From: Psilocybe cubensis
Lineage: Eukaryota
Length of the DNA: 64,000 nt
NCBI GenBank assembly: GCA_017499595.2
Contig: CM038999.1
Coordinates: 3,162,001 to 3,226,000, forward strand
Reading direction: 5' to 3'
Part shown: positions 2,816 through 58,500 of the stretch, piece by piece
Layout of the letters: each line of letters begins with the position of its first letter
Position numbering within the stretch: the stretch's first letter is position 1
Position numbers and translations under genes: made by a program
Notes under the pieces: model-generated
Seen by the model: the letters and a program-made list of their open reading frames with translations, nothing else
Told to the model about the DNA's origin: nothing
Database searches by the model: none

Positions 2816-5751
2816 TCAGTTCCAATTATATTGTGCATACAGCCCTAGAACCTCGTTAGATAAAACCGAGCTGTACAACGACACGTCGGCGGTGACGAAA
2901 GTTTTGTCCGTTTGCACTGAGTTAAGGATCTGTAACAGATCCGTTTCAATGAAGGACACAAAGATGAGGTCGATTGGCGCGTCGTCAGCCACTACCGGGG
3001 GAATGGAACTGATGAATTCTGGGATCGAGTACGAAGGTAATGGCGCATGGAGAATGTCGTCCCCGACCCCTGGGCAAGCCTGTTTGAAAGTCATCCAATT
3101 AGGTCGGTCAGGAATAGGATTCAACGAACTGGAATCTCACATCGGTGGTCACGTAACCCAGTGTCAAGTTCTGCGCTGCCCTTCGCTCAAGCCCACCTCT
3201 TCTGTCCTGCTCTGCCAGCCAGCGATTATAAATCATATCAACATAACCACTCCCATAAAGTTCACGCTCTCTTGACTTCAAAAGACCTCGACTTTGGTTT
3301 TCACCGGCGTCGTTGAGACCTTGGAGAACTTTGCTGGCCACGGAAAAAGGCACGTTAGGTATAAACAAAAATGTATTGACGAAGGGTGAAGCTGTTAACT
3401 GGTCGTTCCTGGTAAATGGGCCTGAATAGATGTCGAATCTCTGCGCGCCGGAGTTGGTAATCACAAGGTTAGGTATTGAGGCTCTGGTGTTGTTGATAGC
3501 CAGTGCGGCGGGGACGGCCTGGATATCCTGTCAGAACATGACACTTTTGTTCAAGGCTAACAAGCTCGCACATTTTCGATATATAGGCTAAGAAGGCTAC
3601 CATTGGACGGGAATGGTGCCCTGATTGAATACCATCCTGTGAGACAGACGTGCAACAGCAAATGATATTTGGCTTACTGGCTGATCGTGAAATCGTGTGG
3701 AGCAATTCCAAACTGGAAGGAAAGGTCGAATTTCTCCGCCAATTGCTTCAAACCCATGGTTATGTTCTCTCCTTGAAGGGTATCATAATCAAATTCGTTC
3801 TTCCCGGTGTGGAACTAATTATGAAAGTTCAGTATTTATGGTCAATCAATACTAAAGGAACTCAAACTTTCCTGGAAGGTGGCACGATTTGGGTCCAGAT
3901 ACCTGCGGCTGAACGTAATATTTTCTTTACTGCCCTGATGATCTAATTTGGCACCTGCATTTTAGATGAGTTATGGCTTTCAATTCTGAAGATTTACACT
4001 ACTAACTCATCCATCCTGTCCAAGAGAGTACTGAGTCGGTGCCAGTCAGGTAAGAGTACTGGACTTACCTATAGTTTCCATATACCTTCCACTTTCCAGA
4101 GACATAGAACGGCCATCAAGTTGAACTGTAAGAATTTTGGGAAATTTTAATATAGATGCCAGAGCTACACTGGTGAAATGGAAACATACGGCAATCACGG
4201 ATATGTGTGTGTCCTACAAAGGTATATCAACGGTGAGGAGGATTCTCTGGTTTGATAAGGATAGAGACATGCCACCAAAAATAAGAATTGGCGTTGTGGG
4301 GTGAACAGCACGAACAGCGTTAAAGACGATGGACCCTAGATATGCAGTCAATAAACGGGAAATATAATATTTTTCTAACAAACCCACATTCAGAGTCAAG
4401 GTCAATTGGCATATGCCTAAATTAAAACCCAGTTCTGGTATTTAAAGTTGTCGCAAAGGAGATTATTCTCACCCAACAAGCAAGAAAAAATCCGGTTCTT
4501 CTTCAATTGCATCTACAAACTAGGGAATGCGGTAAGATTGAATGAAATAAGGCTAAAGATATTAATCGAACCCAGTTTTCTTTGACCATGTCGGAAACCT
4601 TCTGGATTGTCGTATTGTGGCTGTTCCTAGTGAAGTTGAACAAAACACCAAGAGATGTGACTTTTCGGCCCCTATGTCATTCACCATGAATGATTCGATA
4701 AAACACTGGAAACAACTGCGTACTTTCTGGTCTTGAATTTCGCAAACCGTTCTGGCAGCAGATCAAACGATGTTCCAACTTTTGGGAGGTCGTAGACGCA
4801 CCTCCAACAGGGACGCTAACTGCTTGTCCGTTCTCGTTGAAAACAGTGATATTGGCGTTTGAGGAGAGGTACCGTCCCTTCAAGCTCGGTGCGAAGTTAC
4901 GGTGCCTTAAGATTAAACTTTCAGAAAATAGCAATTGAATTACCTGAAAACAGCTTACATGTCCAGAGCGTTGGCGTAGACGTACAACTCATGGCTGGAA
5001 CCGTATTGAAGTGTTGAAAATCAAGTCTTTTAAAAATGCGAAGACAATGACTGACTTTCCAATGGCCATCACATCGTATGGAAGTTGTTTGATGAATTGG
5101 TTGGCCTAAAGAAATTATCAGTATAAGAAAACCAGGATATCTAGAGTCACAAAAAGCCGTACATCATGCGCATCTATTCCACCAGCAGGAAACCCATCTG
5201 TCAAGCCAGTACCTGGAGACATGAATAATCACCAAGGGAATAAACTTCATCAATTTGGGTATAAAGCCCCTACCATCGTGGAGGTCACCAGAATCGACGA
5301 GTAATAGATCCACGTCGCGTTCCTTTGCAGCGTTATGAGTCATTTCACCAAGGACACCATATAAACACATCACACACGATGGCAATTTCTTTCATGTGCG
5401 CAACAAAAGACGCGAAATCTCCCAAGGTGCCACTGCAAATACCCAAATGAATCAAGGGTTCCGATCACAGACTCATGAAAGCTCTTCGATATTAACGTAC
5501 CTGTAATTAGGCTCCGGGTAGGATGTTTTCTGGTGGCCAAGAAGCCATCCATGACTGTCGGTGGTGTGGATGATGTTGATATCTCCCCAGTCGAGCTGGC
5601 GAGTCGGAGGAGGTAACGGGATAGATGGAGTAAACACCTTGGCGTGAAACTGAGTATGTCCATCCTCGCAGGCAGTAGCACTAGAAACCGCCGCTGCCAG
5701 TAACGCAACCAGCCCTAGACTCGGAGAAAAGCTAGGAATGAACATGGGCAT
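2816..5751 (-). CDS. secreted calcineurin-like metallophosphoesterase / 5'-nucleotidase family (YHR202W-like), paralogue 1
   Basis: Signal peptide followed by [28 protein letters not shown] and GGHTH motifs over many short exons. Ends ...[13 protein letters not shown]. Confidence 0.85.
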
Positions 5752-6260
5752 AGCTCTGACCCGTCAAGAATCACAAAGCCTGCACCTCCTGTAAGAGGGG
5801 AACTATGGAAGCGGTCGACCTGTAACCGTAAGCTAGCAGCTTCATTGTGTTTGAACTTCGCGTATTGTTCGTCTAGCTCTTTGGGGATATCATGACATGA
5901 TGATACGACGGATCAAAAAGTCATTATCCACACTTCCGATAAGATTATTAGGGTGAGTGTATATATTACTCAGAAAAATGAATGTGTAATGGATCGTATA
6001 CATATCGTTTTGCATCTGCAAATTAACTTTGAGATGCACTGTTTTTTATCCCTGTCAGTGAAACTGAAAAAGTATGGAAGGCAGCCTCAATATATTTGCT
6101 TTGCGTCACCTTGTATAGTCAGTGGTCACAGGAGAATTCGACAAGAAGCGTTATTGATTCATATTGTCAACATCATATCGATACATTTGAATTCACGCAA
6201 CTACTACAGCGGCACATAGTAGTCGCGTCGCCTACAACCAACCATATCCAAACGCACGGA

Positions 6261-6303
6261 TCAATTCCAAGCTCTTTGGGCAAACAAGCCAAGGGCTTCG
6301 TTA
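6261..6303 (-). pseudogene. detached last 13 codons plus stop of metallophosphoesterase paralogue 2
   Basis: The reverse strand reads NEALGLFAQRAWN*, matching the C-termini of paralogues 1 ([13 protein letters not shown]) and 3 ([13 protein letters not shown]). It joins in frame to 17508 when the insertion is removed. Confidence 0.9.
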
Positions 6304-6556
6304 CACGGCGGGACCTTCGCCACTGTTTTTTTGGCGTCGATCGGAGTTACAAATAAATACGTTTAGATTTACAAAATAAAACCAAATTTAATACTGAAAA
6401 TTAGCATCCGTCGGCGATGTGTTTAGCCGCGTTAAAAATCACAAAATAACCAGTGCGTCAATGAGTCTCTGTTTTATAGCTTCAAATCCACTTCCTTACC
6501 ACAGTCGTGTTCTGATTCTTTTTTTTTGTGGCAGCTAATTTGACGGCAGCCTAATA

Positions 6557-9500
6557 ATGGTCTTCGGCATTGACCCTGCTGGTTAGTGACATCACTCTCG
6601 GTCCACCTTACTACTCGGCTGAATTAAGAATAGTCGTTCAACGACAAGTTGTACACGGTCAAACACTCTATTATTGCCGGGTCTGTCAAGATACAAAAGG
6701 TCGCCAAAAACACCACCTCAATGAGCACTTCAACACCACAAAACACCAAACAGCTCTGCAGGCATTTCATACCAAAGAGAAATCCTCTGCTTCTTCACAA
6801 ACCTCGTTGCCACCGGTTAACAAGTCCCTTTTGTTAGAGGACGCCTTACGTGCAATTCTTGTGTCTGCATCTCGTCAACCACACCAGCCTTTGTATCCTG
6901 CCAATGACCCTCGCCTTTCTAGGGTCTCGGCTGCACCTTCTTCAACCACTTTGTCGACGGTCTCTCCACTCACCAGGATTGACTGGAATCTATTCAACGA
7001 TGATGAAATTATGTCGGATCCATCTCCCATCGACTTTGCGTCTGCCCAAATATGTCAAGCTACTCTGGATTTTCTAAATTCTAATAACGAGAGTGATGGA
7101 TCTGATGATGGTGGTGGCAGTCCTCCGCTTTCTGAGAGTAGCAATGAGCAAGCCAATTCAGGTGTGTAACGTCTAAATAGCGCATATTGTTTGAGTCCTT
7201 AACTTTTAATCAGACACTGAACAAGTTGATAATGAATCTTTGCCCCGAAAACGTATGCGCGGTATTCACACCGACCCGGCTGAAGCTCGAAAATGGTATC
7301 TGTGGATTGATAAAATTGTGAGTCTTTGCCTGCCATCGGTTAGATTTTCTGCTCAATCAATAAATCAGACTTGTTCTCTTGATGTTTTGATGCACCTTCC
7401 ACGATCACTATTTTCACGTCGTCAGCTGGATTTATTTCTCTGGCTACTGCGTATCAATGGCGTCAACGATGTGCCTAGCGTTAAGGCTATGCAAGGCATT
7501 AACAAGGCATTGCAGAATTTGTGTGGAATTGAGACGAAGGAGTACAAGGGCAAGCTGGGCAATGTATACTTTGTAAATTCTCTGTCTCAAATTCTTGCCC
7601 AGGTATGAATCTATATGTTACAAATGAATACTTTTGATTTCTAACCAATCTGAATAGGAAATGTCTAATCCTCAAGTCCGACCGTTCCTTTACTTCTATC
7701 CTGAAGATACGGGCAAATCGATTAGCGAAACCTATCAAGCTTCGGGTTGGCTGCGTGAAATCAATCCTGAGGATGGTACTCCAATGATACGGCTCAATAA
7801 TAATGATTTTTTCATCTTTGAACCAACTATGCTGATTGATGGACGTTGCTGCATTCCTATTCAATGGTTTCTCCGAGAAGGTGTATTTTATGCCAAAGCC
7901 TGGCTTATGGAAGATACTCCTAGTGGTTGGGTTGTGTCCGAAGATCGCGAAATCAAAATCACGCAAAGCCAATTGCTAAAGAATTTTATTCAGTTGTCAA
8001 AGGATCACTTGTTGTATAACTTGTCACACCCTTCACGAATATTTGGTATGGACTATATTTTATATATTTTATTCAATTTCTTATAAGTAAACAGGTGTGC
8101 GATCCATTCGGGGCCTGGGCTGTCGAAATGGACACGTACAGATCCTACTATTGGCAATCGTTGGCGTGTATTAGCAAAGGGATACCGAGTCTATTCTCTG
8201 CCGCTATGGATGTACTGTGACGATACGTCGGGAAACCAGTCCAAGAAGTGGAATAAGCACAACAGCTACCTATTTATTCTAGCTGGTCTTCCTCGCAAAA
8301 AGAGTTCACAAGAATACAATATCCATTTTCTATGCACTTCAGATATTGCGCCACCTCTAGAAATGCTTGATGGTGTGGTTGATCAACTTCAGTAAGTTGT
8401 CACTATCTTATATTTGCTGCACATATTCTAATCATTTTAACTTTAGATTGGCTCAAAAACATGGTATTTGGGTATGGGACTGTATACACAAAGAGGCCGT
8501 TATGATTTTTCCACCTGTATTTGCACTTCTGGGTGACAACCCTATGCATAGCGAGTTTGCTTGTCATATTGGAATGCAAGGGAAATATTTTTGCCAGATT
8601 TGCTGGGCCAAAGGAGTTGACAGTCAAGAATGCCCACACAAAAATCTTCCACATGACAGTTGTGCTCGACCCAACTTTCCTACCCTTTCAATCCATAGTG
8701 ATGTTGATTCTGAAGATACCTTCACACGGCCTTCTCACAAACGGCGGAGGTACAAGGAGTCTATGGAGTCAATGCTTCGAAGGGTTAGTGATTTTATAAA
8801 GGTGCGTAAAAGTTGTTTTATAACAATTTATATTTTAATCACCTTTGATTCTAAGATTGGCAAACCGCGTCGCAAGAAAGAGACTATGGCTACTCTTGAC
8901 TCTTTTTTGGAGCAAGCTAAGATGATTGGCACAAAATCAAAACTTAGAGCTGCAAAAACGGAAACTGGCATCAAGGATGTTTTCCAGGACTTCTTTATTG
9001 AAAAGCTTTTCAAATCTTATAAGGGAAAAGTTTCTACTCAGGCAAAGGAAAAAGCTCTTAAAGCGGCTGTCGATAAGCTTCCTGGAGACATCAAAAGTCC
9101 CGTATGGAAACTTGGTGCGATTGAAATATTTTGCTTTAATTTACTAGCTAAATCTATATTCCAGGCTTGGATCCTCATCAGGACACTCCCGTCAAAATTC
9201 TGCATGTTGTATTGCTGGGTTTCGTTAAATATTTTTGGAGAGACCTAGTTCAAAATCAGGTTACTCCTGCTAAAAAGCAAACTTTGATTATTCGTTTAAA
9301 CAGCCTCAGTGTGGCAGGTCTAGGTATACCCACATTAAATGGCTCCACACTAGTGAACTATGCCGGGTCACTAACTGGTCGCGATTTCCGAATTATTGCT
9401 CAAGTAGCGCCATTTGTCATCTACAACATGGTTTCTCAGGAGGTTTATGATGCATGGGTGTCCCTATCTACGTTAGTTCCAGTTATTTGGCAGCCAGCAA

Positions 9501-10971
9501 TCTCTAACATTGATGAGTACCTGGTGCGTCTTCATTGTGTCTTTCTTTAAATTGTTTTATTAAATTAAATCATGTTTTAGCCCAGATTAGAGGCCGACAT
9601 CAAATACTTTTTGTTGAAAACGGCAACATGGACCTGCGCGTGGTTTAACAAAACCAAATTTCACATTATTCTTCATCTTCCAGAACATGTCCGTCGGTTT
9701 GGGCCAGCAATATTGTTTGCCACGGAATCGTTTGAGTCATTCAATGCTATTATCCGTGCAAAAAGCATTCACAGTAATCACCAAGCACCTTCACATGATA
9801 TTGCCCGTGGCTTTGCGCAAGGCAATCGGATTCGCCATCTTCTTAGTGGTGGTTTTTTTCTTCCACAAGAGCTTTATCAGTCTTGGAAAAAGGATCCAAC
9901 AAATGTGGCTAATTCAGAGTGGCGCACTGCTGGACCTGGAGGTCTTCACCTTATTGATGCTCCAGACTCAACACCAGCTAGCTATTTGGGACTGCAGAAA
10001 CCTGCTGCCAGTAAGGCTGGTAAGTTATATTTACAAATCTATACTACTAGTGAGCGGTCTAATGCAATGGCCTAGGTTCATGCAAATCTAATGGCACAGA
10101 TCCTCAACCATTTCATCGCACATTATGTGGCCAAAAGCTTCCCAACATTGTGCTCAATACTGCAGCCAGCCAACAACTGTATGTAACCAATTCCCAGGTC
10201 TATCTGAGAAACGAGGATCTATGCACCATAGGACAGTTTGTCATTGCCCAAATTCATCCATCCCAGCCGCCTCTGATAGGGTGTGTTCGAGAGATCTTGC
10301 AGCAGGTTGGCTCTCCAAACCATCTTCAAAACCGGCCCGATGGTATTCTTATTCAAACAGCTTTACACCAACCGCCGTCGCACATATTGCCTGCTGGACA
10401 ACTGCAGCCAGTTTTTATGCTCCGTCTGATTCTTCAGCAGGAATGGTCCTTCATTCCGTGGAGTTGCCTTCTTTGCACCGTAAATACTCAACATGACTGT
10501 CAACGTCATGGATGCCAGGCAAATGGGCTACAATACATCTATCAAGAGCAAATACAAACTGATCAGACTAAGGCAACAATACTGCATCAAAACTCATTGG
10601 ATGATATGCTCCTCCTCAATATGTGTCAAATGCGCGATGCTGCTCATCTCCAAAGTTTTCACCTCCACTCTGCCCCGTTAAACGAAGATGCTATAATTCA
10701 AAGAAGTGTGGCTCAAGCCATTGTTCAACGGAAGGTAGGAGAAGCCTCCCAATCAAGTACTTCCAAACCAACCAAAACACCAACAGCCGCCTTGAGACAA
10801 CATGCCCAGAGCCCCTTGGGCACCCCTACTCTAGCAGCCACACCTTCTGGGGGTGTCAGTTTGCCTCAACATGCTTCAGCAGGAACATCTTCTGGAGGTG
10901 TTAGTTCACCTCGACGTAGCAGGCAAGCATCTGTGGTATATCCAGGTCAAATAACATTGGACTTTCGATAG
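6557..10971 (+). CDS. DDE transposase, CMC/EnSpm-like, with N-terminal C2H2-like zinc finger (multi-exon)
   Basis: Motifs CRVC...HFNTTKH, YCDDTSGNQSKKWNKH, LGDNPMHSEFACH...FCQIC, DPHQDTPVKILHVVLLG and KFHIILHLPEHVRRFGPAILFATESFESFN. The ORF fragments are linked by GT-AG introns. Frame continuity near 8046-8095 needs either a 42-nt intron or a 1-nt frameshift. Confidence 0.8.
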
Positions 10972-11024
10972 AAGTAAAACCATACTGTATTTATTTACTA
11001 GAATTCTACAAGAAGAATAGCAGA

Positions 11025-13497
11025 TCAAACTTGTCCAGAGACCTCAAACGCAGCTTTTGAAATAAGATCTTGTAAGGTGCACAACATGCCCAACCCCCTC
11101 TTCCATCGTGTTGGCCTAAGCTCCATTTGCTCTTGATAAAGCTTGGGGTTTGTACGTTTTAACTCCTTCTCGGTGCGGTAGCCATAATCAACCCATCTAA
11201 ACAGGCCACCTGAAGCATACTGAGTAAAGGAAGCACGCTCCTCTCCGTGTTCAATGCTGGTGTTTGAATGTTCTAGGACGGCGGACAGCATAAGGATGGT
11301 AGATCCTGCAGGGAACTCAATGGCCACTTTCAGGCCCCACACCACAAAGTGACCACCCTTTTTGGCATTGAATTTCCCTAAAGACTGGATGGCGCACCAG
11401 CCATATGGACAGTTTTTGATATCAAAATGCGGGATGGTGCAAACCACAGACCCTAGGTTGAAGGTGGCCGCCGGAAATATGCTGCGGCGAAACAGTCGGA
11501 CTAGCGTGGAGTCATTGGCGAATATCTTATCCATGTACAACTTATAGTGGTTGTACACTTTAGGGCTCCATGTAGCAAATGCACCTGTGGATGTGTTTAA
11601 AAACAGGTTCACAAAACAGGCATAGGAGTCACTTACTGCTGGCAAAACTGGCCATTTGTTGAATGCTTTCCGACTGCAAGAGCTTGGCAGTGATTTTGGG
11701 ATGGCGCTGGACGCGGTTGAGTGGAGAGTGTGTCCCTACACCGTGTGTAACGCCGATGTTGAGTGCGGGATAATGACCACGATTTTCTGAATAGTCTTTG
11801 TGTGTAAACACTGTGGTGTGTCCGGCCTCCCTCAGTAGATCAAATGCTTCCTCCGTGGCACGTTCGTATGCAGGGTCCTTAGGACGGCCTGCCAGAACCA
11901 TAAAAATACGTCCGTCTTCAGAAACAAACGGGACGGGGGTGCTATAGTGCATTAGCTTTAACTCCATCAAACTGAACAGATCAGAAGAGTTGTAACTCAC
12001 CATCTATCCCAAGGTATAATGCGGAACCCAAGGGCCTTGATGGCATCCAAGCTATATAGGTGACTTTTGTGGGGTTTTGTTGGTTTAGCACCATAGGCGC
12101 CTTGCGTGGCAGGCAAAGTGTCAAGCTTGACGTTGAGAGCCTCTGGCTGGCAGCTGGGAAGCATGCTTAAAAGACTGGGTTTTGGTGTGTGTCCGTGCTT
12201 ATTGTATTGTAACGTCCGCTGATACTTGCGGCTGCGATGACTGTTGGAAAGCCCATTGTATGGCCTTTTCAGGCTGGCGGTTTGCACGGATGGGTCTCGC
12301 TGAGGTAACGAAAGCGAAAGCTTGGTCGACGATTGCGAAGGTACAATCGGCGGTGTCAACATATTGTCAACCGATGGTGTCAACGCATCGTGGGCTGACA
12401 GCATCGACTCGCGGGTTGACGGGGTCGACGCGTTGTGGGCTGACGTCGTCGATTCGCGGGTTGACGGGATCGACACATCGTGGGCTGACGTCGTCGATTC
12501 GCGGGTTGACGGGGTCGACGCGTTATGGACTGACAGCATCGACTCGCGGGTTGACGGGGTCGACGCGTTGTGGGCTGACGTCGTCGATTCACGGGTTGAC
12601 GGGATCGACACGTCGTGGGCTGACGTCGTCGATTCGCGGGTTGATGGGGTCGACGCGTTATAGACTGACAGCATCGACTCGCGGGTTGACAGGGTCGACG
12701 CGTTGTGGGCTGACAGCATCGACTCGCAGGTTGACGGGGTCGATGCGTTGTGGGCTGACGTCGTCGATTCGCGGGTTGACGGCGTTGACACGTCGTGGAT
12801 CGACGTCATCGATTCACGGGTTGACGGGGTCGACACGTCGTGGATCAACGCCGTCGGCGTCGACGTATTGTTCGTAAACTGCATCCAGGTATCGTCCGTC
12901 GACCGATTCTTTGACGCATCGTGGATCGACGGCGTCCAGATGTTGTGAACGGATGGCGTCGACGTATCGTCGGTCGATGGAATCAAGACATCTATTGACA
13001 AGTACGTGAATGGGCAGATGACGAGTAGGCAAACATGGTGACTCACCTTGATCTAGATCTAACAAGTCTGTGTCCTCCCTTGCATCTGCTGCCCGCCAGG
13101 CAGAGATCAAGTCAAAAGCCAACGGATCCTCCCATACCTCAGGCTGACACTGGGCATACACCCTCCCAGATCATGTCTGCTTGAACAGATTTCCGATTTA
13201 AAACTTGGTATATGCATAGAAAAGTTTCCAAGGACGTACCGTATAGCGCGCCTATTGGCAGGCCGACATCTGTGCATGCAAAAACCAACGGTGAGCAGGG
13301 TTCTTGCAATCATGACACGCCCCAGCTCCTGCGTTGGCTGGCAGTTTGACAGACCCGGTCCAGGGGTGATCCCTCGCCTGGCAAGCCTCTAACCAACGCG
13401 AGAGCTGGGCCCTGTCGCGTTTCTGATATACGAACGTTTGCTTACCGGTGGGACGGGTATTTATACGAACGCGAATGAGGGGAATGTTGAACCTCAT
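11025..13497 (-). CDS. TET/JBP-family 2-oxoglutarate/Fe(II) dioxygenase; 5' exons appear to carry two stops
   Basis: Inferred exons 13497-13240, 13176-13047, 12991-12001, 11941-11637 and 11584-11025. The C-terminal domain has FPAATFN, PHFD (HxD), GGHFVVW, IEFPAGST, LEHSN (H) and ERASFTQY (RxS), the basidiomycete TET/JBP pattern. Confidence 0.85.
12387..12836 (-). repeat. 10 x 45-bp coding minisatellite (15-aa unit, e.g. ASTPSTRESTTSAHD)
   Basis: Visible in the DNA and in ORF 11997-13046. Units 5-7 recur almost exactly as units 8-10. Confidence 0.95.
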
Positions 13498-13507
13498 TAA
13501 ACAGATC

Positions 13508-13548
13508 AGGGGTCAGGTGATAGGGGTCAGGTGATAGGGGTCAGGTGA
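13508..13548. repeat. 3 x 14-bp tandem repeat AGGGGTCAGGTGAT just upstream of the TET/JBP gene
   Basis: Direct reading of the sequence. Confidence 0.9.
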
Positions 13549-13760
13549 CGTAGGTGGACGCGTTGCACCCGCGACACACTTCAACTGCTTTGACCTCAGA
13601 ACACCTGGTAATACGTCAGTCCGCTACAAACACAAACACCGCAGAGTAATGCAGGTCTCAGGAATACTACCCAGGTGCGTTATATTTCATGCATCCCTTT
13701 TGTAAGGCCAAATTGACAATATAGTATTGAAAGTGCTGCAGATTCTATTTCACAAACCGT

Positions 13761-14664
13761 CTAAACAATAGCAATGGGATTGTCAGACTGCAAAGGCTGA
13801 GGAGGAATGTAAACCGGTACGTTAATGCCATGGGACGTCAACGCTGCTTTCAGCTGTTGGCTCCAATGCCTCTCTTCTACCAGCATAATTGCTGTGTTGT
13901 GTTCCTGTCTGACATATGTCCTCAACTGCTCTTCTAGACCCTCCACCACCAACGTCAGGTATGCAGAGCGTTGTTTGGAATTCTTCACAGACCTAACCAA
14001 GTTTTTTACCGCCTTTTTAGTTGACTGGGCCTCCTGGCGTGCTGCGGCAAGGTCCAACCATGCCGTTCAAAGCTGATTCTTATAGGCCACAGCTTCTCTT
14101 GTTGCCTCGATGGCTATTTCACGCCAAACAGTAATCTCTGCCTCCAGATCGCGTCGGGAACGTGGATAGGCCCTGTTCAAGCTGATTGTGGTTTTGTTGC
14201 GGGGAACCTTGGAGGAATGGTCTAATAAAGTGGATGTGAGTGGTCTCAACCTTTCACAGCAATACTGTCAACTTATGAAACGCACCATTCTTTTCAGGCA
14301 TTTTGGATACAACCGGCTGGTCTTCGAGATCGCTTTGGCACGTTGATCCAGGGGTATCACCTAGTTGAGTTTGGATGGTGTAAGTTCAAGTGCATTCGTG
14401 ATAAGATTCTATTTACCAAGGCCGTAAAAACTGTAGTTGGGCAGACCATCAGTAACGTCAAGCCCTACGGGTGGGAGGTCAGGGTAGGTTATGCTGAGGT
14501 TTAACAAGGTTTGTTTACTGACCTGCATTCAGAGTTGACAGGTACTTTTTAGGTGCCTCATCGTCTTCATCTTGGTTGTGCTTCCTGAAACTTTTTTTTG
14601 GCGATGGAGTCTTAGGCGACAGCAGGCGGGATGGTAGACAATTGTCAAGAGTGTTGGTAGACAT
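13761..14664 (-). pseudogene. transposon cargo gene with coiled-coil C-terminus and an in-frame TGA
   Basis: Starts MSTNTLDNCLPSR with GT-AG introns. ORFs 14067-14249 and 13761-14057 share a frame and are separated by TGA at 14067-14069. The product is helical and charged (DLEAEITVWREIAIEATREA...LEEQLRTYVRQE). Confidence 0.6.
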
Positions 14665-14813
14665 GTTGAGCGGTTCAAGATAACGAAACCACACAAATAT
14701 CAGACTGATGGTTAAGGGAGTGAGAGAGTGAGACAAAAGGTGAGCAAACCTTTGGAATAACTTTGACGCCTCCTTTTTATGTGACGCATAGGTTTGTTGT
14801 TGTTGATGTGACA

Positions 14814-14871
14814 CGACGCGAATTGTTGATTGACCTCGAACGCGACGCGAATTGTTGATTGACCTCAAACG
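14814..14871. repeat. 2 x 29-bp tandem repeat between the divergent cargo genes
   Basis: CGACGCGAATTGTTGATTGACCTC(G/A)AACG occurs twice. Confidence 0.9.
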
Positions 14872-14962
14872 CGATGTGATTCGTTTGTTGTGGCAAACAT
14901 GGCAAATCAAACTTGGGGTATAAAAGCAAGGTAAGAGATGTTTGCTTGATTCTGAATCCACA

Positions 14963-16522
14963 ATGTCTCATTCTTCGATTGACCCAGCTTTTGCATCACA
15001 GCCTGTTTCTCGTGACGTGGACCGCCCAACTGGTACATAGCTGTTTATTGACAACCTGGTTCACCGATTCAACCTCACAAGCAACCACAGTGCAGATCTC
15101 ACTTTTCTTTATCAGGTAAACTTGTTTTTTACATAACGCCTACATCAAACTGCTTCTAACTCGTAAACCCGCAGATCTGTACAGCCGTGCCTGAAGAGCA
15201 ACCTCCTTAGACCGAAGTGATAAGTCGAATCATGATGTTGGCCTGCCAGTTTGGGGCCGAAGTTCGTCTGCATAAAGCACTGACTGCCACGCAAACACAT
15301 CTACAAGGACTCGGGCAGCTGAGCAGTTTTTTGGCTGATTATGAGCTGCAAAAAGATGAGAACTTTGTGTTATCAAATGCACAAAAGGTGAGTCATTGTT
15401 TGCCTTTATGAACACGGTGGTCTGAGCCAGCTTTTAGATGGCCATTAAATCAACCTGTATCAAAGAGCTTCTAAAGCCCTCTAGACAGTCCTTTAAGACG
15501 CTTCACATCGATGTTGAGGTGCGTTCTTTTCACTTTAATTGGCGGTCTAAAACAAATGCATTTGCAGGCAAAGATGAAAAAAAAGCCCGCAGACAATTAC
15601 CTTGACAACATCCTGAATCGGCTGGGACGTGAGGCCAAATGGATGGCGCATATACAAACCGTTTGTACAATTCAGAGAAACACGCTTCGAAAAGAGGTGT
15701 GTGGTTGTCCGGTTTACCATATGCCGTGTACTGATGTGTGAAATTAAAGATCATACAAAGCATAACTCCAGGCCCAAAGTTTACTTCTGTGCAAGAATTT
15801 GCGGCGGGCCTCATTGTGAAATATTGTCTGCCTACGTCAGAGTCTGGTGCAAATTCCAATACAGCTTACCTCTCAAAACATGTGTTATTGGTGTGTCTTC
15901 AATATTTCTGATTCAAAAAGTTTCACTAACGTGGCAATGTAAAGTGGCGGTTTTTCTGGGACCATTCATCTATGTTTTCGGCCTTTGAACTTGAGAAGGA
16001 TGACAACAACTCAGAAGAGGAGAACAATGACCAGGATTTTGGAACACCAAGCACCGACAACTCTAGCGATTCGGGTCATTCTGCTACCAAAAACGTAAAT
16101 TGCAAAAAACAAACATTCCCGCTGGGAAAACTCGCGGTCGGGTGGCTGATGGCGAAGACTATTGGTCCAAAGTTGATCAATGGCTCAAGAGGCTTGACGA
16201 TGAGCTGGGAGATAATACAGCTGAGTTGAAACAGTCCGAGTTTTCTCTTGTATTCTCAATGAGTTATGCTAAGCTTGTGAATAGATTTATTGCTGAATGT
16301 CTGGAGATGGACTCTCTCAGGACCAATAAAGGCTTAGATTTCTCAAGCCACCCTTCCGAGCGCTCTTTTACCAGCCCTAGCGATGTCACATCCGACCCAC
16401 AACCCACCACTATACAGTCCTTTCCTTCCAATTCTTCTTCGAGGCTGCCTGAACCTCATTTAAATTTTGGTAATGCAATTGCTCAATTATTTAGTGGTCC
16501 TTCAACAGGTAGACCTTTTTAG
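14963..16522 (+). pseudogene. uncharacterised spliced transposon cargo gene with two in-frame TAG stops
   Basis: ATG at 14963. Intron 15116-15174 keeps the frame into ORF 15217-15411. TAG stops lie at 15038-15040 and 15208-15210. Later exons include GEDYWSKVDQWLKRL. Confidence 0.6.
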
Positions 16523-17001
16523 CCACTAGACTCCACTACAATATAGTTATTAATTATGCGGAAATGTATGTGTAAACGCAACTAAATCTGAAGTTGATGT
16601 TGAGAACATGTAGCCCCTAATATTCAGTTTGCTAGTGTTTGGCACCGGTGATCATTTGATCAACAGCAACGAGTTATCGCTTTCATCTTTTCCTCCATGA
16701 TCTCGCACAGCGGCACCGTGTTTTCCGCCGTGCATTGTTAAGAGATCCAGCCCTTTCATGTACTAAAAGCCATGCACTGGAAAGATCCAGATTCCCAATA
16801 TGTGGGAACGCGTTGAGCGGCATGGTTGGGCATAGTTTTTTTTTGGTGACTGACATTTGATTTGTAGATCGCACACTGGTGCAAGAACCTGCTTATTGCT
16901 GAGTATTTTTAGACAGCTATCCATGGCGAAAATTACTTATTTTAACACCACAGGTTCAAGAATATGTGCTTTGAAGTTTGACAAGGTCCAAGAACACCAT
17001 T

Positions 17002-17155
17002 GCCGGAATCGATAGCCATCGTTGACACCATAGTTTGGCTCTGGAGAATGGGTGATAGTTGGATGCGCAACACAACATCGTCAACGCCATAGCCGGAATC
17101 GATCGCCATTGTCGACACCATAGTTTGGCTCTGTGGAATGGGTATTTGTGGATGC
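17002..17155. repeat. imperfect direct duplication of about 65 bp, 90-bp period
   Basis: GCCGGAATCGAT..CCAT.GT.GACACCATAGTTTGGCTCTG at 17002 and at 17092. Confidence 0.85.
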
Positions 17156-17342
17156 AATAACCCAGTGAGTACTTTATAGGATAGACGTTAGATTAGTAGT
17201 TATTTAGCTTCAGCTTCATGCTCAATATATGGTGTTTTATTATAACCTAATCTTGTATGAAAGACCAAAAATAAAATTTCACAATGATATTATACTGTGA
17301 ATACATATGAAAAGCCTACAAAAAAATATGTATTTGCTAGAA

Positions 17343-17461
17343 TGTGGCTGACACAAACGGTGCTTGGCACTTATGTGGCAGCCACATGAATTTCGGCCTG
17401 TTGTGTCACCCACTGATATCGGATGGAGGTGGCAGACACATGTTTATTTGTGTCTGACATA
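17343..17461. repeat. subterminal 13-bp quasi-palindromic repeats at the right end of the transposon
   Basis: TGTGGCTGACACA (17343), TGTGGCAGCCACA (17374), TGTGTCACCCACT (17402), GGTGGCAGACACA (17428), TGTGTCTGACATA (17449). Confidence 0.8.
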
Positions 17462-20356
17462 CATCGGCCAAACACATCCAAAAATGTGTCCAGCGGCCGC
17501 CTGTGTAGCCAGAATCGGGCTATATAACGACACATCCGCGGTGGTGAACGTCTTGTCCGATTGCACTGAGTTGAGAATCTGTAACAGCTGTGTTTCGATG
17601 AAATCAACAAATACAAGGTCGATAGGTGCATCGTCAGCTACTGTGGGTGGCACAGAACCGATAAAGTCGGGTGTCGGGAAGAAAGGTAATGGAGCATGGA
17701 GAACATCGTCTCCGACACCTGGGCAAGCCTGGAGCGGTCATAAACGTCATCAGTGGCACGAAACAGAGAGTAATATTCTGATTGCTTACATCGCTGGTAA
17801 CGTATCCAAGTGTCAAGTTTTGCGCGGCCCTTCTCTCGATCCCGCTCCTTCTATCCTGTTCCTCCAGCCAGCGGTTGTAAACCATATCGACGTGACCGCG
17901 ACCATAAAGCTCACGCTCTCTCTCCTCCAAAAGTTCTCGTCTTTCGTTCGCACCGGCTTCATTGAGGGCGGGGAGAACTTTGTTGGCAATGGAGAATGGC
18001 ACATTAGGGATGAACAAGAACGAATCGTCGAATGGCGACGCTGTCAGCTGGTCGTTCTTGGTGAAAGGTCCGGCGTATATGTCAAATCGCTGCGAGCCCG
18101 AGTTGGTAATCATGATGTTGGGTATCGAAGCTCTGGTGTTATTGATAGCTAAAGCAACGGGGACGGCCTAGGACCTTCGTTAGAACATCATTCGAATACA
18201 CAATCATTGAGCTCATACATTTTCAATGAACAGACTAAGAAGAGAATCGTTGGATGGGAATGGCGCCCTGGGTAATATAATTGTATGAGATCGGCCATAC
18301 AGTAATATAACAAGTTGGCCTTACTGGCTGATTGTGAAATCGTGAGGAGCAGTTCCAAATTGGAAGGAAAGATCGAATTTCTTGGCTAGATTGTTCAATC
18401 CTTTAGTTATGCTCTCTCCTTGAAGGGTGTCGAAATTGAAGCTGTTCTTTCTGGTATGGAACTACAACAACAGGATTGAAGCCTTATAACAAAGTACATG
18501 AACGAAAACGCAAGCTTACCTCAAAAGTTACTCGATTGGGGTCAAGATACCTACGACTGAACGTGATGTTCTTTTTGCTCCCCTTTTTATCCAATTTGGC
18601 GCCTGCGTTTAGGTTAGATACGCGTCTTTAACTCCAAAGGGTTTGGAAACTCACTGAGCCACCCTGGAAAAGCGGAATAATAAGTACTTCAACTCGGCCT
18701 GAGATATGAAAGTTGAATTTACCAATGGTTTCCATGTACCTTCCACTCTCCAGTGACATTGAACGACCATCGAGTTGAACTTCAAAAAAGTCAGTGTTCA
18801 AGCAAATATAACACTTGCAACAATATGGACATACGGCAGTCGCGAATATGGGTGTGTCCTACAAATGAATGAAGCTCAAAAACCATCATAAACAATAATG
18901 GTAGAACCTACCACCAAGGATCAGAATGGGCGTGGTGGGATGAACAGCACGAACAGCATTGAAAACAAGAGGCCCTGTTAGATATACATGATCAGACTTG
19001 AGTCTTGTTGGCGCATTCAGGAGACTCACAATCGTCACGAGCAATTGGCATATGCCTTGAAGGAGGTCAGAAGCGAAGATAGCCCTTTTTAACTACAAAC
19101 TCACCCAACGAGCAAGAAAAAGTCTGGCTCTTCCTTGATAGCTTCTGCAAACTAAGTGGCACGTTTTAAGATAAAAAAAAAGACTCAAGATGATATATCC
19201 ATACCCAAGTTTCTTTCACCATATCCGAAACTTTCTGCACCTTCGTATTGTGGTCGTTTCCAGTGAAATCGAACAAAACACCGAGAGAAGTGACTTTACG
19301 ACCCCTATGATATAGTTGAATAATTGCTAAAATAATTCAAAGAAACAGCGCACTTTCTCGTCTTGAACTTAGCGAATCGTTCTGGAAATATTGTAAGTTT
19401 CATGCAGCATATCAGGACAAAATGACTCACCTCCAACAGGTACACTGACTACCTGTCCTTTTTCATTGAGAACCGTAATGTTGACGTTGGAGGACAAGTA
19501 GCGTCCCTTCAGACTCGGTGCAAAGTTTTGATGCCTAAATTCGTATGGTTAGGAATCAGGACTGAATTGGTCGATAGCGGCGTACATGTCGAGGGCATTG
19601 GCATAGATATACAGCTCGTGACTTCGATGGAATGCGGGTTCAGAAAACAATATGTATATGTCTAAGAGACAATAAAGACTGACTTTCCGATGGCCATTAT
19701 ATCGTACGGCAATTGTTTGATGAATTGGTTGGCCTAGAAAATCTCATAATTAGCTGATGCTGTGAGCGCAATCAAACAGCACCGTACATCATGCGCATCA
19801 ATGCCACCAGCTGGGAACCCATCGGTCAAGCCAGTGCCTATGATATTTGCCAACATTTAGAAATGTAGACTCGAATAGTCGATTGATTTTTCCGCACCGT
19901 CATGAAGGTCACCAGAATCGACAAGTAAAAGATCTGTGTCGCGTTCCTTCAAAAAGTTATTTGCAACTTATCTAGGAAGAGACAAATATTCGACGTACAA
20001 TGGCCAATTCCTTCATATGGGTCACAAAAGATGCAAAGTCCCCAAAGGTACCGCTAACAGTACACAAGAGCATAAGCATCATTATCCATAGCATCAAAGT
20101 AAAGCGACACGTACCTGTAATTAGGCTCTGGGAAAGACGATTTCTGATGTCCAAGAAGCCATCCATGACTATCAGTGGTGTGGATAATGTTGATGTCGCC
20201 CCATTCGAGCTGGCGCGTTGGTGGGGTCAACTGGACAGACGGGGTAGTCCTCTTCGCGTGATCGTGAGCATGACCATCTTCACACGCGCTGGTCGTAGAA
20301 ACCGCGGCCAAAGACCCAAGAAGTCCTAGGACGAAGCTGGGTGTGAGCAACAACAT
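17444..20356 (-). CDS. metallophosphoesterase paralogue 2, C-terminus replaced by transposon-derived sequence
   Basis: Same motifs and exon structure as paralogue 1. After YSPILA it reads into the element ([20 protein letters not shown]). Confidence 0.85.
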
Positions 20357-55585: not shown

Positions 55586-58500
55586 ATGTTCAAACTTCTA
55601 GCTTTATGTTCAGCCTTCATAGCTGCGACGGCAGTCCTCGCATTACCCACTGCTCAAGATGTACTTAAATCTCTCATTTACGTAGGATTCAACACACCGG
55701 ATCCTCAAATTCAATACGAACTTGACCTCAACAACACTATGGTTGATGCTTGGACAAACGAAGTGGTCAACACACACAACAAGTATCGTGCCCAATATCG
55801 CGCACCGCCCGTCACCTGGAGCAATGATCTCTACGCAGGTACACTTGCGTGGGCTAGGCAATGCCAATTCCGTCACAGGTTGGATAATCCAATATTTTCG
55901 TTTCATAAGATTAACTGATGCTAATGTTATGACATGACCTCTCCTCGTCTCCCTCTTTAGGTAGTTACCATTACCATATCGGGCTCGACCCCATTTTCCT
56001 ATAAAGGTCGAGCCCCTCCCTCTTGTACCTTAGTCTTGACCTTGTCAATACGACTCTCTTCTCGTTGTTTCGTCTCGCCTTTTGTGCCTCCAAGTCCTCG
56101 CCTGACATCAGGTCAAGACTAAAACCAAACGCTTACCTCCGTATTGTGTCTGAAGCGCCCTAAAAAGCGCATATACCTTCACGCCGCCGCGCCTTAAAAG
56201 CGCATATAGTCACCTCTTGTGTCTTGTCTCACGTTCTGTTCTTGCCCGCCACGGCTCGCTTGTTTTCTGCCGCTTTCGCTCGCTTCGCAAACCGTCATTC
56301 TCGCCGTGTACGACGCAGTCGTATCCATCTTTACTACCGCTCCGTACCTAAACCTCGTCCTTGGACGGGCCCCGTCGTCTTTCTTCTCTGTTTCGGCTCT
56401 TTCATAGAGGTTCCGTTCCGTGATCGCTACTCTATCGTATACAGTAAAAACCGTTCCATTTTCCTTTAATTCTCCCATCTATTACCTCATGCCGACTGCC
56501 TTACGCTCCGGTGCTAACGCGGGTCAGACTCCGTCCGACAATGCTGGCTCTACTCCGAACCCTGGTTCTGGCCAAGTTGCCGCACTGAACACTGTCAACC
56601 AGGGGTCGTCTGCAACAACCGACCCCTTGGGTGGCTCTTCTGGCTCTGCTGGTATTCCCCCTGCGACTGAGCGGCCTGTTTTCTTCACTCCTAGTAACTT
56701 ACGCTTCATCCTGAGCGACAATCGCAATGCCTTCATCGCCGCCATGGTCACAGCCTTGGACGAACTCAACACATTGCGAGGCCCCGCTCACACTCACGCT
56801 ACACCTCCACCTGCCCGCCGTGCACCCAAATTAAACAAGCCTCCCTCTTTCAATGGCTCCTCTGAAGACTGCCCTGATTTCCTTGCTATGGTCCGCGCAT
56901 ATATTTCAGCAAATCGTCAGGATTTCGACGACGTACGCACTCAGGTGTTGTTTTGTCTTTCACACTGCGGCTCCGGCGCGGCCCGCGACTGGCGTGTCCT
57001 CATGATGGAGGACATTGAGTCCGGCGATTACGTCATCACGACGTGGGACGACTTCGAGAAGTTATTCAAGCGCACCTTCTTGTCCCACTACACCGAGGAC
57101 GATGCCGCTCGTGGCATCGACACCATCAGGCAAGGCTCTACTCCGACCCAGGAGTTCCACATCGCCTTTGACGGTCTCGTACGACGCTCCGCATTCGATG
57201 ACAAAGCAATTGTCTTCCACTTCAAGCAGGCTCTGCGCCCCGACCTACTCAGGGAATGTACTCGGGTCTTCCCCGCACCCACAACGTGGCAGGAATGGCG
57301 TAGAGTCGCACTGGAGCAGTCTCACCGTCTCTCGGAGGTTGACGCTACCCTGGCGCATGCGCGACGCAACACGTATCATCCCCCCCATCTCCGTAACACC
57401 AACACCAACACCAACCCCACCCCAAACTACCCCACCGCCATCACCGTTCCTACTACCACTCCTAAACCAACTGTCGTTACCAGCACCACAACCCCTGCCC
57501 CACATGCAACACTTCCTCAACCCGCCCCTGTCGTCAACGCTCCACGCGCTCGCGTCGACCCCGCAACTGTTAACTGCCACAACTGTGGCACCCGGGGTCA
57601 TTTCGCCCGCAACTGTCCTCGCCCCTACGATGCCCAATTCCGCCGTAACTCTCGCAACCGCCTTTTACAAGCGCGCAATCTTGTCGAAGAATTTGCTGCC
57701 CTACCCGAGGAGGAAAGGGAGGAGATCTTCAAGGTTGTTGAGGGTGAAGAGGAGGATGGCGCTCAGGAGGATTTTGTACAAGCCGCCGAGTGTTGAATGT
57801 GTCCTCGACGGTTAAAGAGTTTCTGTCTGTATGTCTTACTGCAATACAACTGTTTCCTCATTCCACAACCACATTGCCTTCTAAGCTAAACTTACCCACA
57901 CCCCCTGCCCAACACCCTCAATGCCCCTTCCCATGCCCTCCCCCTCCCCGAGCCCTGTGCGAAGATGTGCCCGACGAGGAACCATCTCGCATTGCACCCT
58001 TGCCCATCGACGGGTCCATCCTGTGCCATATCGACGTGCAAACTGACACCCCCACCACTGTTACCACTACCCAAACACCCAACACCGCTGGCAACTCCCC
58101 AAAATCCGCCGCTTTGTCCCTGCTGCTACGCTGTAAGACCTCCTACCCTAACTACTCGTCCTGTCGCCGCATGTTATTCAAGTGGGTATCTAAGGAACGT
58201 TGGGATGAGATCGACGAATCACTCATTGATGCCCTCTGCTCTCTACCCGAGGATCTTGCCTTGCAGGTTCTGCGTCAACTCCGTCAACAGAAGGAGTACA
58301 TATCGCGCCTGGGTAGCAACTCTATGCACATCCCCATGTCCGTTCAGTCCTCTGCTGTTGCCGCCCCCGTCGATGTTGTTGCGCTGCTTGACAGCGGTGC
58401 CTCGGGCTGTTACATTGATACTAAGTTTGCTACCTTGCTCAATGCCGAACTGACGCAGTTACCCCACCCCATTGCGGTTTACAACGTCGACGGATCCCGT

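Follow-up and report, generated by a model that had tools for sequence, protein, structure and literature searches.

The question raised by the locus described here is whether a TET/JBP-like dioxygenase gene that lies beside a transposase gene is itself part of the mobile unit, to which kind of transposon that unit belongs, and what the enzyme may do for it. Transposon-encoded TETs are thought to let mobile DNA erase host methylation marks; we know of no test of this idea so far, and all published cases of which we are aware are consensus reconstructions. The locus is found in the mushroom Psilocybe cubensis, within a stretch of 64,000 nucleotides (assembly GCA_017499595.2, contig CM038999.1, positions 3,162,001 to 3,226,000, forward strand), which is referred to below as the window and whose own numbering is used throughout. 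Segment 6304–17505 of the window is a recently inserted copy of a multicopy cut-and-paste DNA transposon that carries a TET-like gene. An exactly bounded copy, together with an empty allele in other strains, provides direct evidence of recent movement, and an easily grown fungus with two near-identical subfamilies of the element, which differ in the condition of their TET and in the load of CpG transitions, makes the idea testable.

Boundaries, target duplication and empty site

The element and its ends are as follows:
6304–17505, plus strand: the entire transposon of 11,202 bp, with 5'-CAC...GTG-3' at its ends (from terminal sequence and empty-site joints)
6302–6303, unstranded: left copy of the TA target-site duplication (from the joint of 6301 to 17506, with two ambiguous letters; the contigs of other copies start at 6302)
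17506–17507, unstranded: right copy of the TA target-site duplication (the contigs of other copies end at 17507)
6304–6316, plus strand: left terminus, which has only CAC and an imperfect GGCGG in common with the right end (from sequence)
17493–17505, minus strand: right terminus in its minus-strand reading (from sequence)

The left boundary (6302–6311) reads ..GT TA|CACGGCGG.. and the right boundary (17498–17510) reads ..CGCCTGTG|TA GCC... The left flank is present in nine public runs, and four of these, from three studies and other than the possible source runs of the window, were aligned to 4500–19500 (X5, X6 and X7 as contigs, X11 as raw reads). Position 6301 is joined to 17506 by one contig each in X5, X6 and X7, and the same joint is present in 26 raw reads of X11 (17 + 9, with 19 distinct starts). 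The joint omits 11,204 bases, with two letters fitting either side, and what remains is an empty site carrying one TA; the element therefore comprises 11,202 bp (6304–17505) and is accompanied by a 2-bp TA duplication. The exact ends and the 2-bp duplication given in a preliminary description of the locus, made from the window sequence alone, are borne out by these joints in all four runs and by the host reading frame that they restore.

The two ends read CACGG and CACAG. The preliminary description had spoken of CAC ends, and CAC/GTG is indeed present, but the repeat search detected no terminal inverted repeat, and beyond CAC/GTG the termini share only the imperfect GGCGG. In a BLAST comparison of the two 400-bp ends, the sole alignment (13/14, E 0.053) lay at a different distance from each terminus, and a search for subterminal repeats found the 7-10-mers common to both ends to be no more frequent than in shuffled sequence.

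The element sits between two tandem paralogs of a NadN-like 5'-nucleotidase gene, both on the minus strand (2864–5763 and 17508 to approximately 20400) and 74% identical over 496 aligned bases. The right-hand paralog (host gene B) is the one affected:
6261–6303, minus strand: last 13 codons and stop of host nucleotidase gene B, displaced by the insertion (open reading frame (ORF) with the element removed)
17508–18167, minus strand: 3' part of host gene B, a NadN-like nucleotidase C-terminal domain (126.8 bits), now reading into the element

When the element is excised in silico, the right-hand nucleotidase ORF is extended by 13 codons to a stop at 6263–6261, and this restored tail agrees with the C-terminal end of the other tandem paralog, near 2.8 kb. 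The insertion therefore lies within the last exon of the host gene and replaces its last 13 codons, a point that goes beyond the earlier account; the interrupted nucleotidase now runs 20 codons into the element.

Other copies and the position of the TET gene

In X5, X6 and X7 the element is assembled on separate contigs at 2 to 3.5 times the depth of the flanks (word depth of element versus flank contigs 83.4 versus 41.5 in X5, 44.8 versus 13 in X6 and 291.4 versus 83.9 in X7). This depth is even over the full 11.2 kb, and the element contigs are interrupted only at the 45-bp and 29-bp internal repeats. The repeat contigs of all three runs start at 6302 and end at 17507, that is, they comprise TA, element and TA, with differing loose ends outside; therefore, the other copies are built alike throughout, terminate at identical positions and are flanked by TA at either end. 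Raw reads of X11 show loose ends at the same boundaries (27 at the left and 24 at the right).

Public protein models agree with a multicopy element. The 90% protein cluster of the transposase holds 13 distinct P. cubensis models and the TET clusters hold nine. In the JR316 assembly, each of the ten listed transposase accessions is paired with a TET accession of adjacent number, and locus tags of the three genes fall in one run (JR316_0007966 for gene 4, 7968 for the TET and 7969 for the transposase). The claim that the TET gene is inside the mobile unit, rather than merely near it, is thus upheld by the empty site, by the even repeat depth in three runs and by the 10/10 consecutive accession pairs. 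Related copies with the same ends that lack the TET gene were looked for among the JR316 accession pairs and the repeat contigs, and none was found.

One JR316 transposase copy (P0062) is named 'Heat-stable 19 kDa antigen', and its first ~150 residues are unlike those of the other copies; it is probably a gene model that fuses a neighboring host gene to the transposase.

The TET/JBP-like dioxygenase

The dioxygenase gene has the following features, the active-site codons here and the transposase motifs below having been computed by hand from the exon map:
11025–13269, minus strand: TET/JBP-like dioxygenase gene, with its stop at 11025–11027 and an ancestral start ATG at 13269
11235–11429, minus strand: active-site codons (His 11429–11427, Asp 11423–11421, second His 11270–11268, Arg 11237–11235)
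12379–12843, minus strand: 45-bp tandem repeat of 10.3 copies, encoding a Ser/Thr/Pro-rich unit of 15 amino acids (aa) in the disordered N-terminal part of the TET

An 871-aa public model from P. cubensis spans 14664–11028 on the minus strand. The number of 15-aa units varies among public TET models (seven versus five pattern matches). The transposase stop (10969–10971) and the dioxygenase stop (11025–11027) face each other with 53 bp between them, as first described, and HxD, the second His and RxS are retained in the window and in 9/9 element-derived P. cubensis TET models. In the wider family, H495, D497, R559, S561 and H548 are kept in 19–20 of 19–20 sequences (H495 19/19, D497 19/19, H548 20/20, R559 19/20), as is N500 (19/19). 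Counted from the first His, without a joint alignment with the named TET types, Asn occupies position +5 in 19/19 and Cys position +11 in 18/18 family sequences. A set of 80 soil metagenome loci with relatives of the window TET, 46 of which have at least 1 kb of downstream sequence, preserves each of these two residues in 80/80 and HxD in 79/80.

An AlphaFold model of the TET has a predicted local distance difference test (pLDDT) value of at least 86 in 10-residue blocks from about residue 321, values of 54–91 for residues 260–320 (54–58 around 301–320), and values below 50 for residues 1–243. When this model is used in a Foldseek search, ranks 1–26 are all occupied by CcTet, NgTet1, TET2 and CMD1 (E 2e-12 to 2e-6), with CcTet at 2e-12, NgTet1 at 3e-9 (target template-modelling (TM) score 0.62), and TET2 and CMD1 at 2e-7; FTO/AlkB and other 2-oxoglutarate (2OG) oxygenases follow only from about 1e-4. 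The predicted fold thus supports a grouping of the dioxygenase among the TETs rather than among other 2OG oxygenases, and the possibility of a non-TET affiliation, which had been named as a reason to abandon the TET assignment, did not materialize. A sequence search of the TET exon against the PDB returned nothing relevant.

The residue at +5 is of interest with respect to substrate. In the sections of PMC11040006 drawn on here, human TET2 has Asn and NgTet1 and CMD1 have Asp at this position, and in these enzymes the residue hydrogen-bonds to N4 of 5-methylcytosine (5mC) and clashes with N6-methyladenine (6mA), and CcTet, which has Gly at +5 and Asp at +11, is active on both 5mC and 6mA. A 2025 survey of transposon-borne TET genes (Kojima 2025, PMC12730594), cited throughout for its main text, distinguishes AG-type TETs, marked by Gly/Ser and Asp at these positions, PE-type TETs, marked by HxE, and a PU type confined to rusts. 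The window TET fits neither the AG type, having Asn and Cys instead, nor the PE type, having HxD. Judged by these residues, its pocket may be TET2-like and directed to 5mC.

Relatives of the TET beside other transposases

The pairing of this TET family with a transposase is not unique to Psilocybe. In gene model P0054, a KDZ transposase is fused to one TET relative (35% identity, E 3e-55). Among the 80 soil loci, 11 (L026, L029, L031, L032, L033, L041, L043, L054, L067, L068 and L076; all of them among the 46 that extend at least 1 kb downstream) contain an HxD TET with a Plavaka-like ORF 1.5–2.5 kb downstream on the same strand, and the four such ORFs that were scored reach 51–55 bits with the Pfam model. 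In a further soil contig (L069:5941–7832), the TET relative is convergent with C-terminal exons of the window transposase family (E 2e-30; hmmsearch 7e-14), with 259 bp between the stops; this contig ends before the rest of the transposase. Given the KDZ fusion, the 11 Plavaka-adjacent soil loci and L069, TET cargo has evidently moved between transposon types. The main text of the 2025 survey assigns Plavaka HxE (PE-type) TETs only (PMC12730594).

No KDZ sequence was detected in any of the 80 soil loci by tblastn with the KDZ part of P0054. In Agrocybe chaxingu and Paramarasmius palmivorus, the two species in which both protein families have sequential locus tags, the tags of transposase and TET are far apart and give no sign of linkage.

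The transposase and its family

The transposase gene faces the TET gene from the left half of the element:
6557–10971, plus strand: transposase gene, 11 exons in the 1283-aa public model P0001, all residues of which map exactly, with the stop at 10969–10971
6669–6746, plus strand: CxxC...HxxxxxH zinc-finger-like motif at the transposase N-terminus (from translation; weak Pfam match to SF3a60_Prp9_C, 19 bits)
8219–9736, plus strand: transposase catalytic core (DD 8219–8224, second D 8535–8537, CxxC 8592–8603, HxxxH 9662–9676, E..E 9725–9736)

P0001, from Psilocybe cubensis, is found letter for letter in the window in 11 exon blocks between 6557 and 10968. The N-terminal zinc-finger-like motif is a probable DNA-binding part. 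Within the catalytic core, the residues of the motif are preserved among 79 aligned family members as follows: D318 in 72/75, D319 in 73/75, D405 in 73/74, C424 and C427 of the CxxC in 70/70 each, H721 in 67/69, H725 in 63/67, E742 in 64/66 and E745 in 66/68.

The family is very large: its cluster representatives number 4000 at E ≤1e-3, 2276 at ≤1e-10 and 747 at ≤1e-30. Its named members belong to the Agaricales, Polyporales, Russulales, Cantharellales and Atheliales, along with one rust, Puccinia striiformis (E 1.8e-95). A Pfam scan of eight near and eight distant members found no transposase family in any of the 16, including KDZ, CxC, Plavaka and Transposase_21; thus, a fungal transposase family with thousands of cluster representatives escapes current domain libraries. 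Searches of PDB sequences with P0001 and with family profiles returned nothing relevant. Among language-model neighbors (Atlas clusters), the nearest is Plavaka (0.95; 192 features in common), followed by Transposase_21 (0.89).

The preliminary description had placed the transposase in a CMC/EnSpm lineage rather than with KDZ. Characters found that are expected of a CMCT enzyme include the D..D..CxxC..HxxxH..E pattern, CA..TG termini and a duplication within the range of 2–5 bp, and the TA target duplication combined with an EnSpm-like transposase corresponds to ESTA as defined in PMC12730594. On these sequence characters, the view that the protein is a 1,100–1,300-aa DDE enzyme of CMCT type (a group comprising EnSpm/CACTA, Mirage, Chapaev, Plavaka, ESTA and Transib), and not a KDZ transposase, is supported, though not proven. 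The earlier placement therefore stands as far as motif pattern, ends, 2-bp duplication and the lack of KDZ similarity are concerned, but the profile searches gave no significant link to a named member. Because of the motifs, the ends and the duplication length, its nearest kin among described elements are probably the fungal lineages that the main text of Kojima 2025 characterizes as 'EnSpm', with CAC..GTG ends, and as 'ESTA', with TA duplications.

Two subfamilies and the decay of the window copy

Copies of the element in P. cubensis fall into two subfamilies. Type 1 comprises the window copy and seven of the ten JR316 copies, these seven having identical proteins, and type 2 comprises the other three. 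Differences of the window from the sister subfamily include the following:
13173–13254, minus strand: two stops (TAG, TGA), a Trp and an Arg in the first TET exons of the sister subfamily (compared with P0037)
8105, plus strand: one extra A in the sister subfamily and in the X5–X7 contigs (20/44 X11 reads carry the A)

Compared with type 2, a single A is missing from type 1 after 8105 and another after 16088, and the window subfamily needs a 42-nt intron at 8105 to keep the transposase in frame. The transposases of the two types differ at 23 residues; at eight of these the type-2 residue is that of the family majority (≥60%), and at none is the type-1 residue, examples kept in type 2 being an Arg of the CxxC motif (66/69) and a Glu (73/78). 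Six differences separate the TET proteins, three of them at conserved residues (Gly 15/19, Arg 17/18, Pro 18/19). The dioxygenase gene is thus as first described with respect to its catalytic motifs, but two in-frame stops interrupt the stretch that corresponds to the first pair of coding exons in the sister subfamily. Because of these stops and of the replacements at conserved residues of both enzymes, the window copy is probably weakened or mobilized in trans.

The differences have a direction. Of 25 protein-changing differences, 24 are G-to-A or C-to-T towards type 1, and 15 of the 24 are at an ancestral CpG. A comparison of X6 with the window gives 93 sites with A/T in the window versus G/C, and 20 of the reverse, and the observed/expected ratio of CpG is 0.65 in the transposase gene versus 0.9–1.0 in the flanks. 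These one-directional differences look like methylation-linked deamination of a TET-bearing element, and type 1 probably underwent CpG methylation and deamination and went on spreading all the same, using type-2 enzymes. That the copy belongs to a mutation-scarred subfamily had been missed in the preliminary description.

As a separate observation, the deamination-like pattern lies in a fungal group in which hypermutation is reportedly undetected.

Weighing the alternatives

Taken as a whole, we consider it likely that the element is a multicopy CMCT transposon with a TET cargo directed against silencing, and that the window copy stems from a CpG-scarred subfamily. The transposon entered a TA that lay 13 codons ahead of the stop in a NadN-like nucleotidase gene, duplicating the TA; its TET may oxidize 5-methylcytosine on element DNA and so counter silencing by CpG methylation; and the window copy, weakened or non-autonomous, may have been moved by, or together with, the intact sister subfamily.

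Several results weigh against this account. The more prolific subfamily is the one with a damaged TET start, which disfavors a strict need for the TET in cis. A search of the dioxygenase with the Pfam Tet_JBP profile, suggested at the outset, did give a match, but a weak one of 23.1–23.2 bits that lies under the cut-off (gathering score) of 34.9, and a match at E ≤0.01 is obtained for only 2 of 20 family members; moreover, the TET family profile finds no TET chain in the PDB, CcTet included. For the transposase, the Pfam models for Plavaka, Transposase_21 and KDZ have no match in the 16 family members, and neither RAG1 nor Transib chains are recovered from the PDB with the family profile. The same profile matches none of the Plavaka ORFs in the soil contigs (6,318 ORFs searched, with only L069 found). 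Alignment with hhalign gives 0.04% against a four-sequence alignment of Plavaka ORFs and 3% (P 0.015) against a crude exon-chained Plavaka, in which only the second D and the CxxC are in register. Finally, the hallmarks of CACTA elements, given in part in the main text of Kojima 2025 (PMC12730594), are missing: neither end reads CACTA, the duplication measures 2 and not 3 bp, no subterminal repeats were found and there is no Transposase_21 (PF02992) match.

The first alternative is that the element is a divergent member of Plavaka, in which case the lineage would be nothing new, the link of Plavaka to TET having been known since 2014. Plavaka is the nearest Atlas cluster, and all 10 of the ten best family-bearing matches share it. 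In addition, PlavakaA also makes 2-bp duplications (PMC12730594), members of the same TET family are located upstream of true Plavaka ORFs in the 11 soil contigs listed above, and the four catalytic blocks are alike by eye. However, the Pfam model PF18759 scores 51–55 bits on 4/10 of the soil-contig ORFs, which serve as a positive control, and yields nothing at E ≤1 on the eight near members and nothing at E ≤0.01 on the eight distant ones. The failures of the family hidden Markov model (HMM) and of hhalign point the same way, as do the ends, which are CAC..GTG and not TGT..ACA (PlavakaA) or CATCA..TGATG (PlavakaB; PMC12730594). A Plavaka identity is for these reasons regarded as unlikely. The possibility raised earlier that the transposase might prove to be a standard KDZ or Plavaka member found no support in the profiles, since the KDZ, Plavaka and Transposase_21 models match 0/16.

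It could also be supposed that the TET is an old capture, a decaying passenger that does nothing for an element able to spread without it. The two stops in its ancestral first exons, the replacements at the three strongly conserved Gly, Arg and Pro positions, and the fact that type 1 accounts for 7/10 JR316 copies and is the source of the polymorphic insertion are all in keeping with this idea, and the CpG-transition scars imply that protection is incomplete at best. Set against it are the open ORF of the catalytic domain, with the triad and the Arg in 9/9 element-derived models, and the sister subfamily, which keeps a full TET with the conserved residues and could act in trans. The presence of the TET family beside three different transposase types likewise argues for repeated selection of the cargo, and we find the passenger explanation improbable.

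That the element is a KDZ transposon of Kyakuja type, the usual TET carrier of mushrooms, is suggested by the CA..TG ends without inverted repeats that Kyakuja likewise has (PMC12730594) and by the one KDZ-fused TET relative. With no KDZ or CxC Pfam match in 16/16 members, an hhalign probability of 0.2% against the KDZ-bearing protein, and a 2-bp duplication versus the 7–8 bp of KDZ (PMC12730594), it is very hard to sustain.

A deletion or an assembly artefact in place of an insertion, which might be entertained insofar as the four runs examined show the joined form only and the possible window-source runs are outside the comparison, is scarcely credible: the base-exact joint retains a single TA, it re-establishes a reading frame that closes with 13 codons matching those of the paralog, it occurs in raw reads with 19 distinct starts as well as in three independent contigs, and other copies terminate at identical bases.

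Remaining features of the element and the window

Beyond the transposase and the TET, two further ORF sets are present in the element:
13767–14664, minus strand: ORF set 'gene 3', ~221 aa, helical, fused to the TET in some public models
15235–16519, plus strand: ORF set 'gene 4', 202 aa in two exons in public model P0224, with an extra A after 16088 in the sister subfamily

The preliminary description had counted these as two more genes. The ORF sets exist and are annotated in P. cubensis, but they are annotated only there, and relatives were not found elsewhere. Neither has a Pfam match or a tblastn match in the soil contigs, and their best Atlas score (0.86) is at chance level. A homologue search for gene 4, made among proteins of 83–265 aa only, returned a single P. 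cubensis cluster.

Two small tandem repeats also lie within the element, one of 14 bp × 2.9 at 13508–13548, of which the contigs of other strains have one 14-bp unit fewer, and one of 29 bp × 2.1 at 14814–14874. Elsewhere in the window, at 56408–61869 on the plus strand, there is a long terminal repeat (LTR) retrotransposon of Ty3/Gypsy type with long open frames for gag (462 aa) and for pol (1373 aa), the latter containing protease, reverse transcriptase, RNase H, integrase and a Tf2-type SH3 domain.

Comparison with known systems

Kojima 2025 (PMC12730594) describes eleven transposon lineages with TET genes, EnSpm, ESTA and Plavaka among them, and proposes that the enzymes allow escape from silencing by methylation. 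The suggestion that the pairing seen here might be a new and distinct anti-silencing cassette is accordingly not supported, as TET-bearing EnSpm, ESTA and Plavaka elements and the same role are already in that survey. The element is a new example and not a new principle, its kind having first been catalogued in print in 2025. The main text of the survey (PMC12730594) contains no mention of 'Psilocybe', and the family and the TET subtype of the window are absent from that main text; a full-text literature search turned up neither a further report of CMC-type transposons with TET genes nor any account of this element.

It may be, though we put this forward tentatively and would not be surprised to see it fail, that the element represents an undescribed TET-bearing CMCT lineage of the Agaricales, with CAC..GTG ends, strict TA targeting and no Pfam match, together with a fourth, TET2-like TET subtype (HxD, Asn at +5, Cys at +11) that has passed between three or more kinds of transposon, Plavaka, KDZ and the present one among them. 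If true, this would contradict the picture, drawn in the main text of the 2025 survey, of mushroom HxD TETs confined to Kyakuja/Zisupton and of Plavaka with HxE only. In this reading the element is still jumping in a cultivable mushroom, in which the two subfamilies, one with an intact and one with a CpG-scarred TET, amount to a natural experiment on whether TETs borne by transposons give protection from methylation-driven decay.

Among the enzymes, human TET2 and NgTet1 differ from the window TET in sequence (11–16% identity) and lack its long, disordered and repeat-rich N-terminus, but they resemble it in fold (Foldseek probability 1.00; target TM 0.45 and 0.62), in the HxD...H triad and in the polar +5 residue. 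CcTet, by contrast, has Gly at +5 and Asp at +11 versus Asn and Cys, with an identity of 11–12% in structural alignment (residues of CcTet from PMC11040006, as above).

Comparison with the transposon lineages of the 2025 survey was made on their published descriptions. Kyakuja and other KDZ elements with AG-type TETs are likewise TET transposons of mushrooms with CA..TG ends, no inverted repeats and the same presumed anti-methylation role, whereas their transposase is unrelated and Kyakuja duplications are 7 bp long (PMC12730594). Plavaka (A/B) shares a mushroom CMCT-type transposase, 2-bp duplications, the closest language-model features and, beside its ORFs in 11 soil loci, relatives of the same TET, but it is set apart by a Pfam model without a match in the window family, by other ends and by the lack of cross-detection by HMM. 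ESTA is similar in its TA duplication, its EnSpm-like transposase and its TET cargo, yet the main text reports it from rust fungi alone, with TETs of PU type (PMC12730594). The fungal 'EnSpm' elements of Puccinia and Agaricus bisporus make 3-bp duplications versus the 2-bp TA found here, and their TETs, as described, are PU-type, or PE-type with HxE in Agaricus, versus HxD with Asn at +5 and Cys at +11. They are nonetheless alike in having CAC..GTG ends and an internal TET/JBP gene (PMC12730594), in a transposase with 'sequence similarity to Plavaka' but without a clear database match, and in the occurrence of a relative of the window transposase in Puccinia striiformis.

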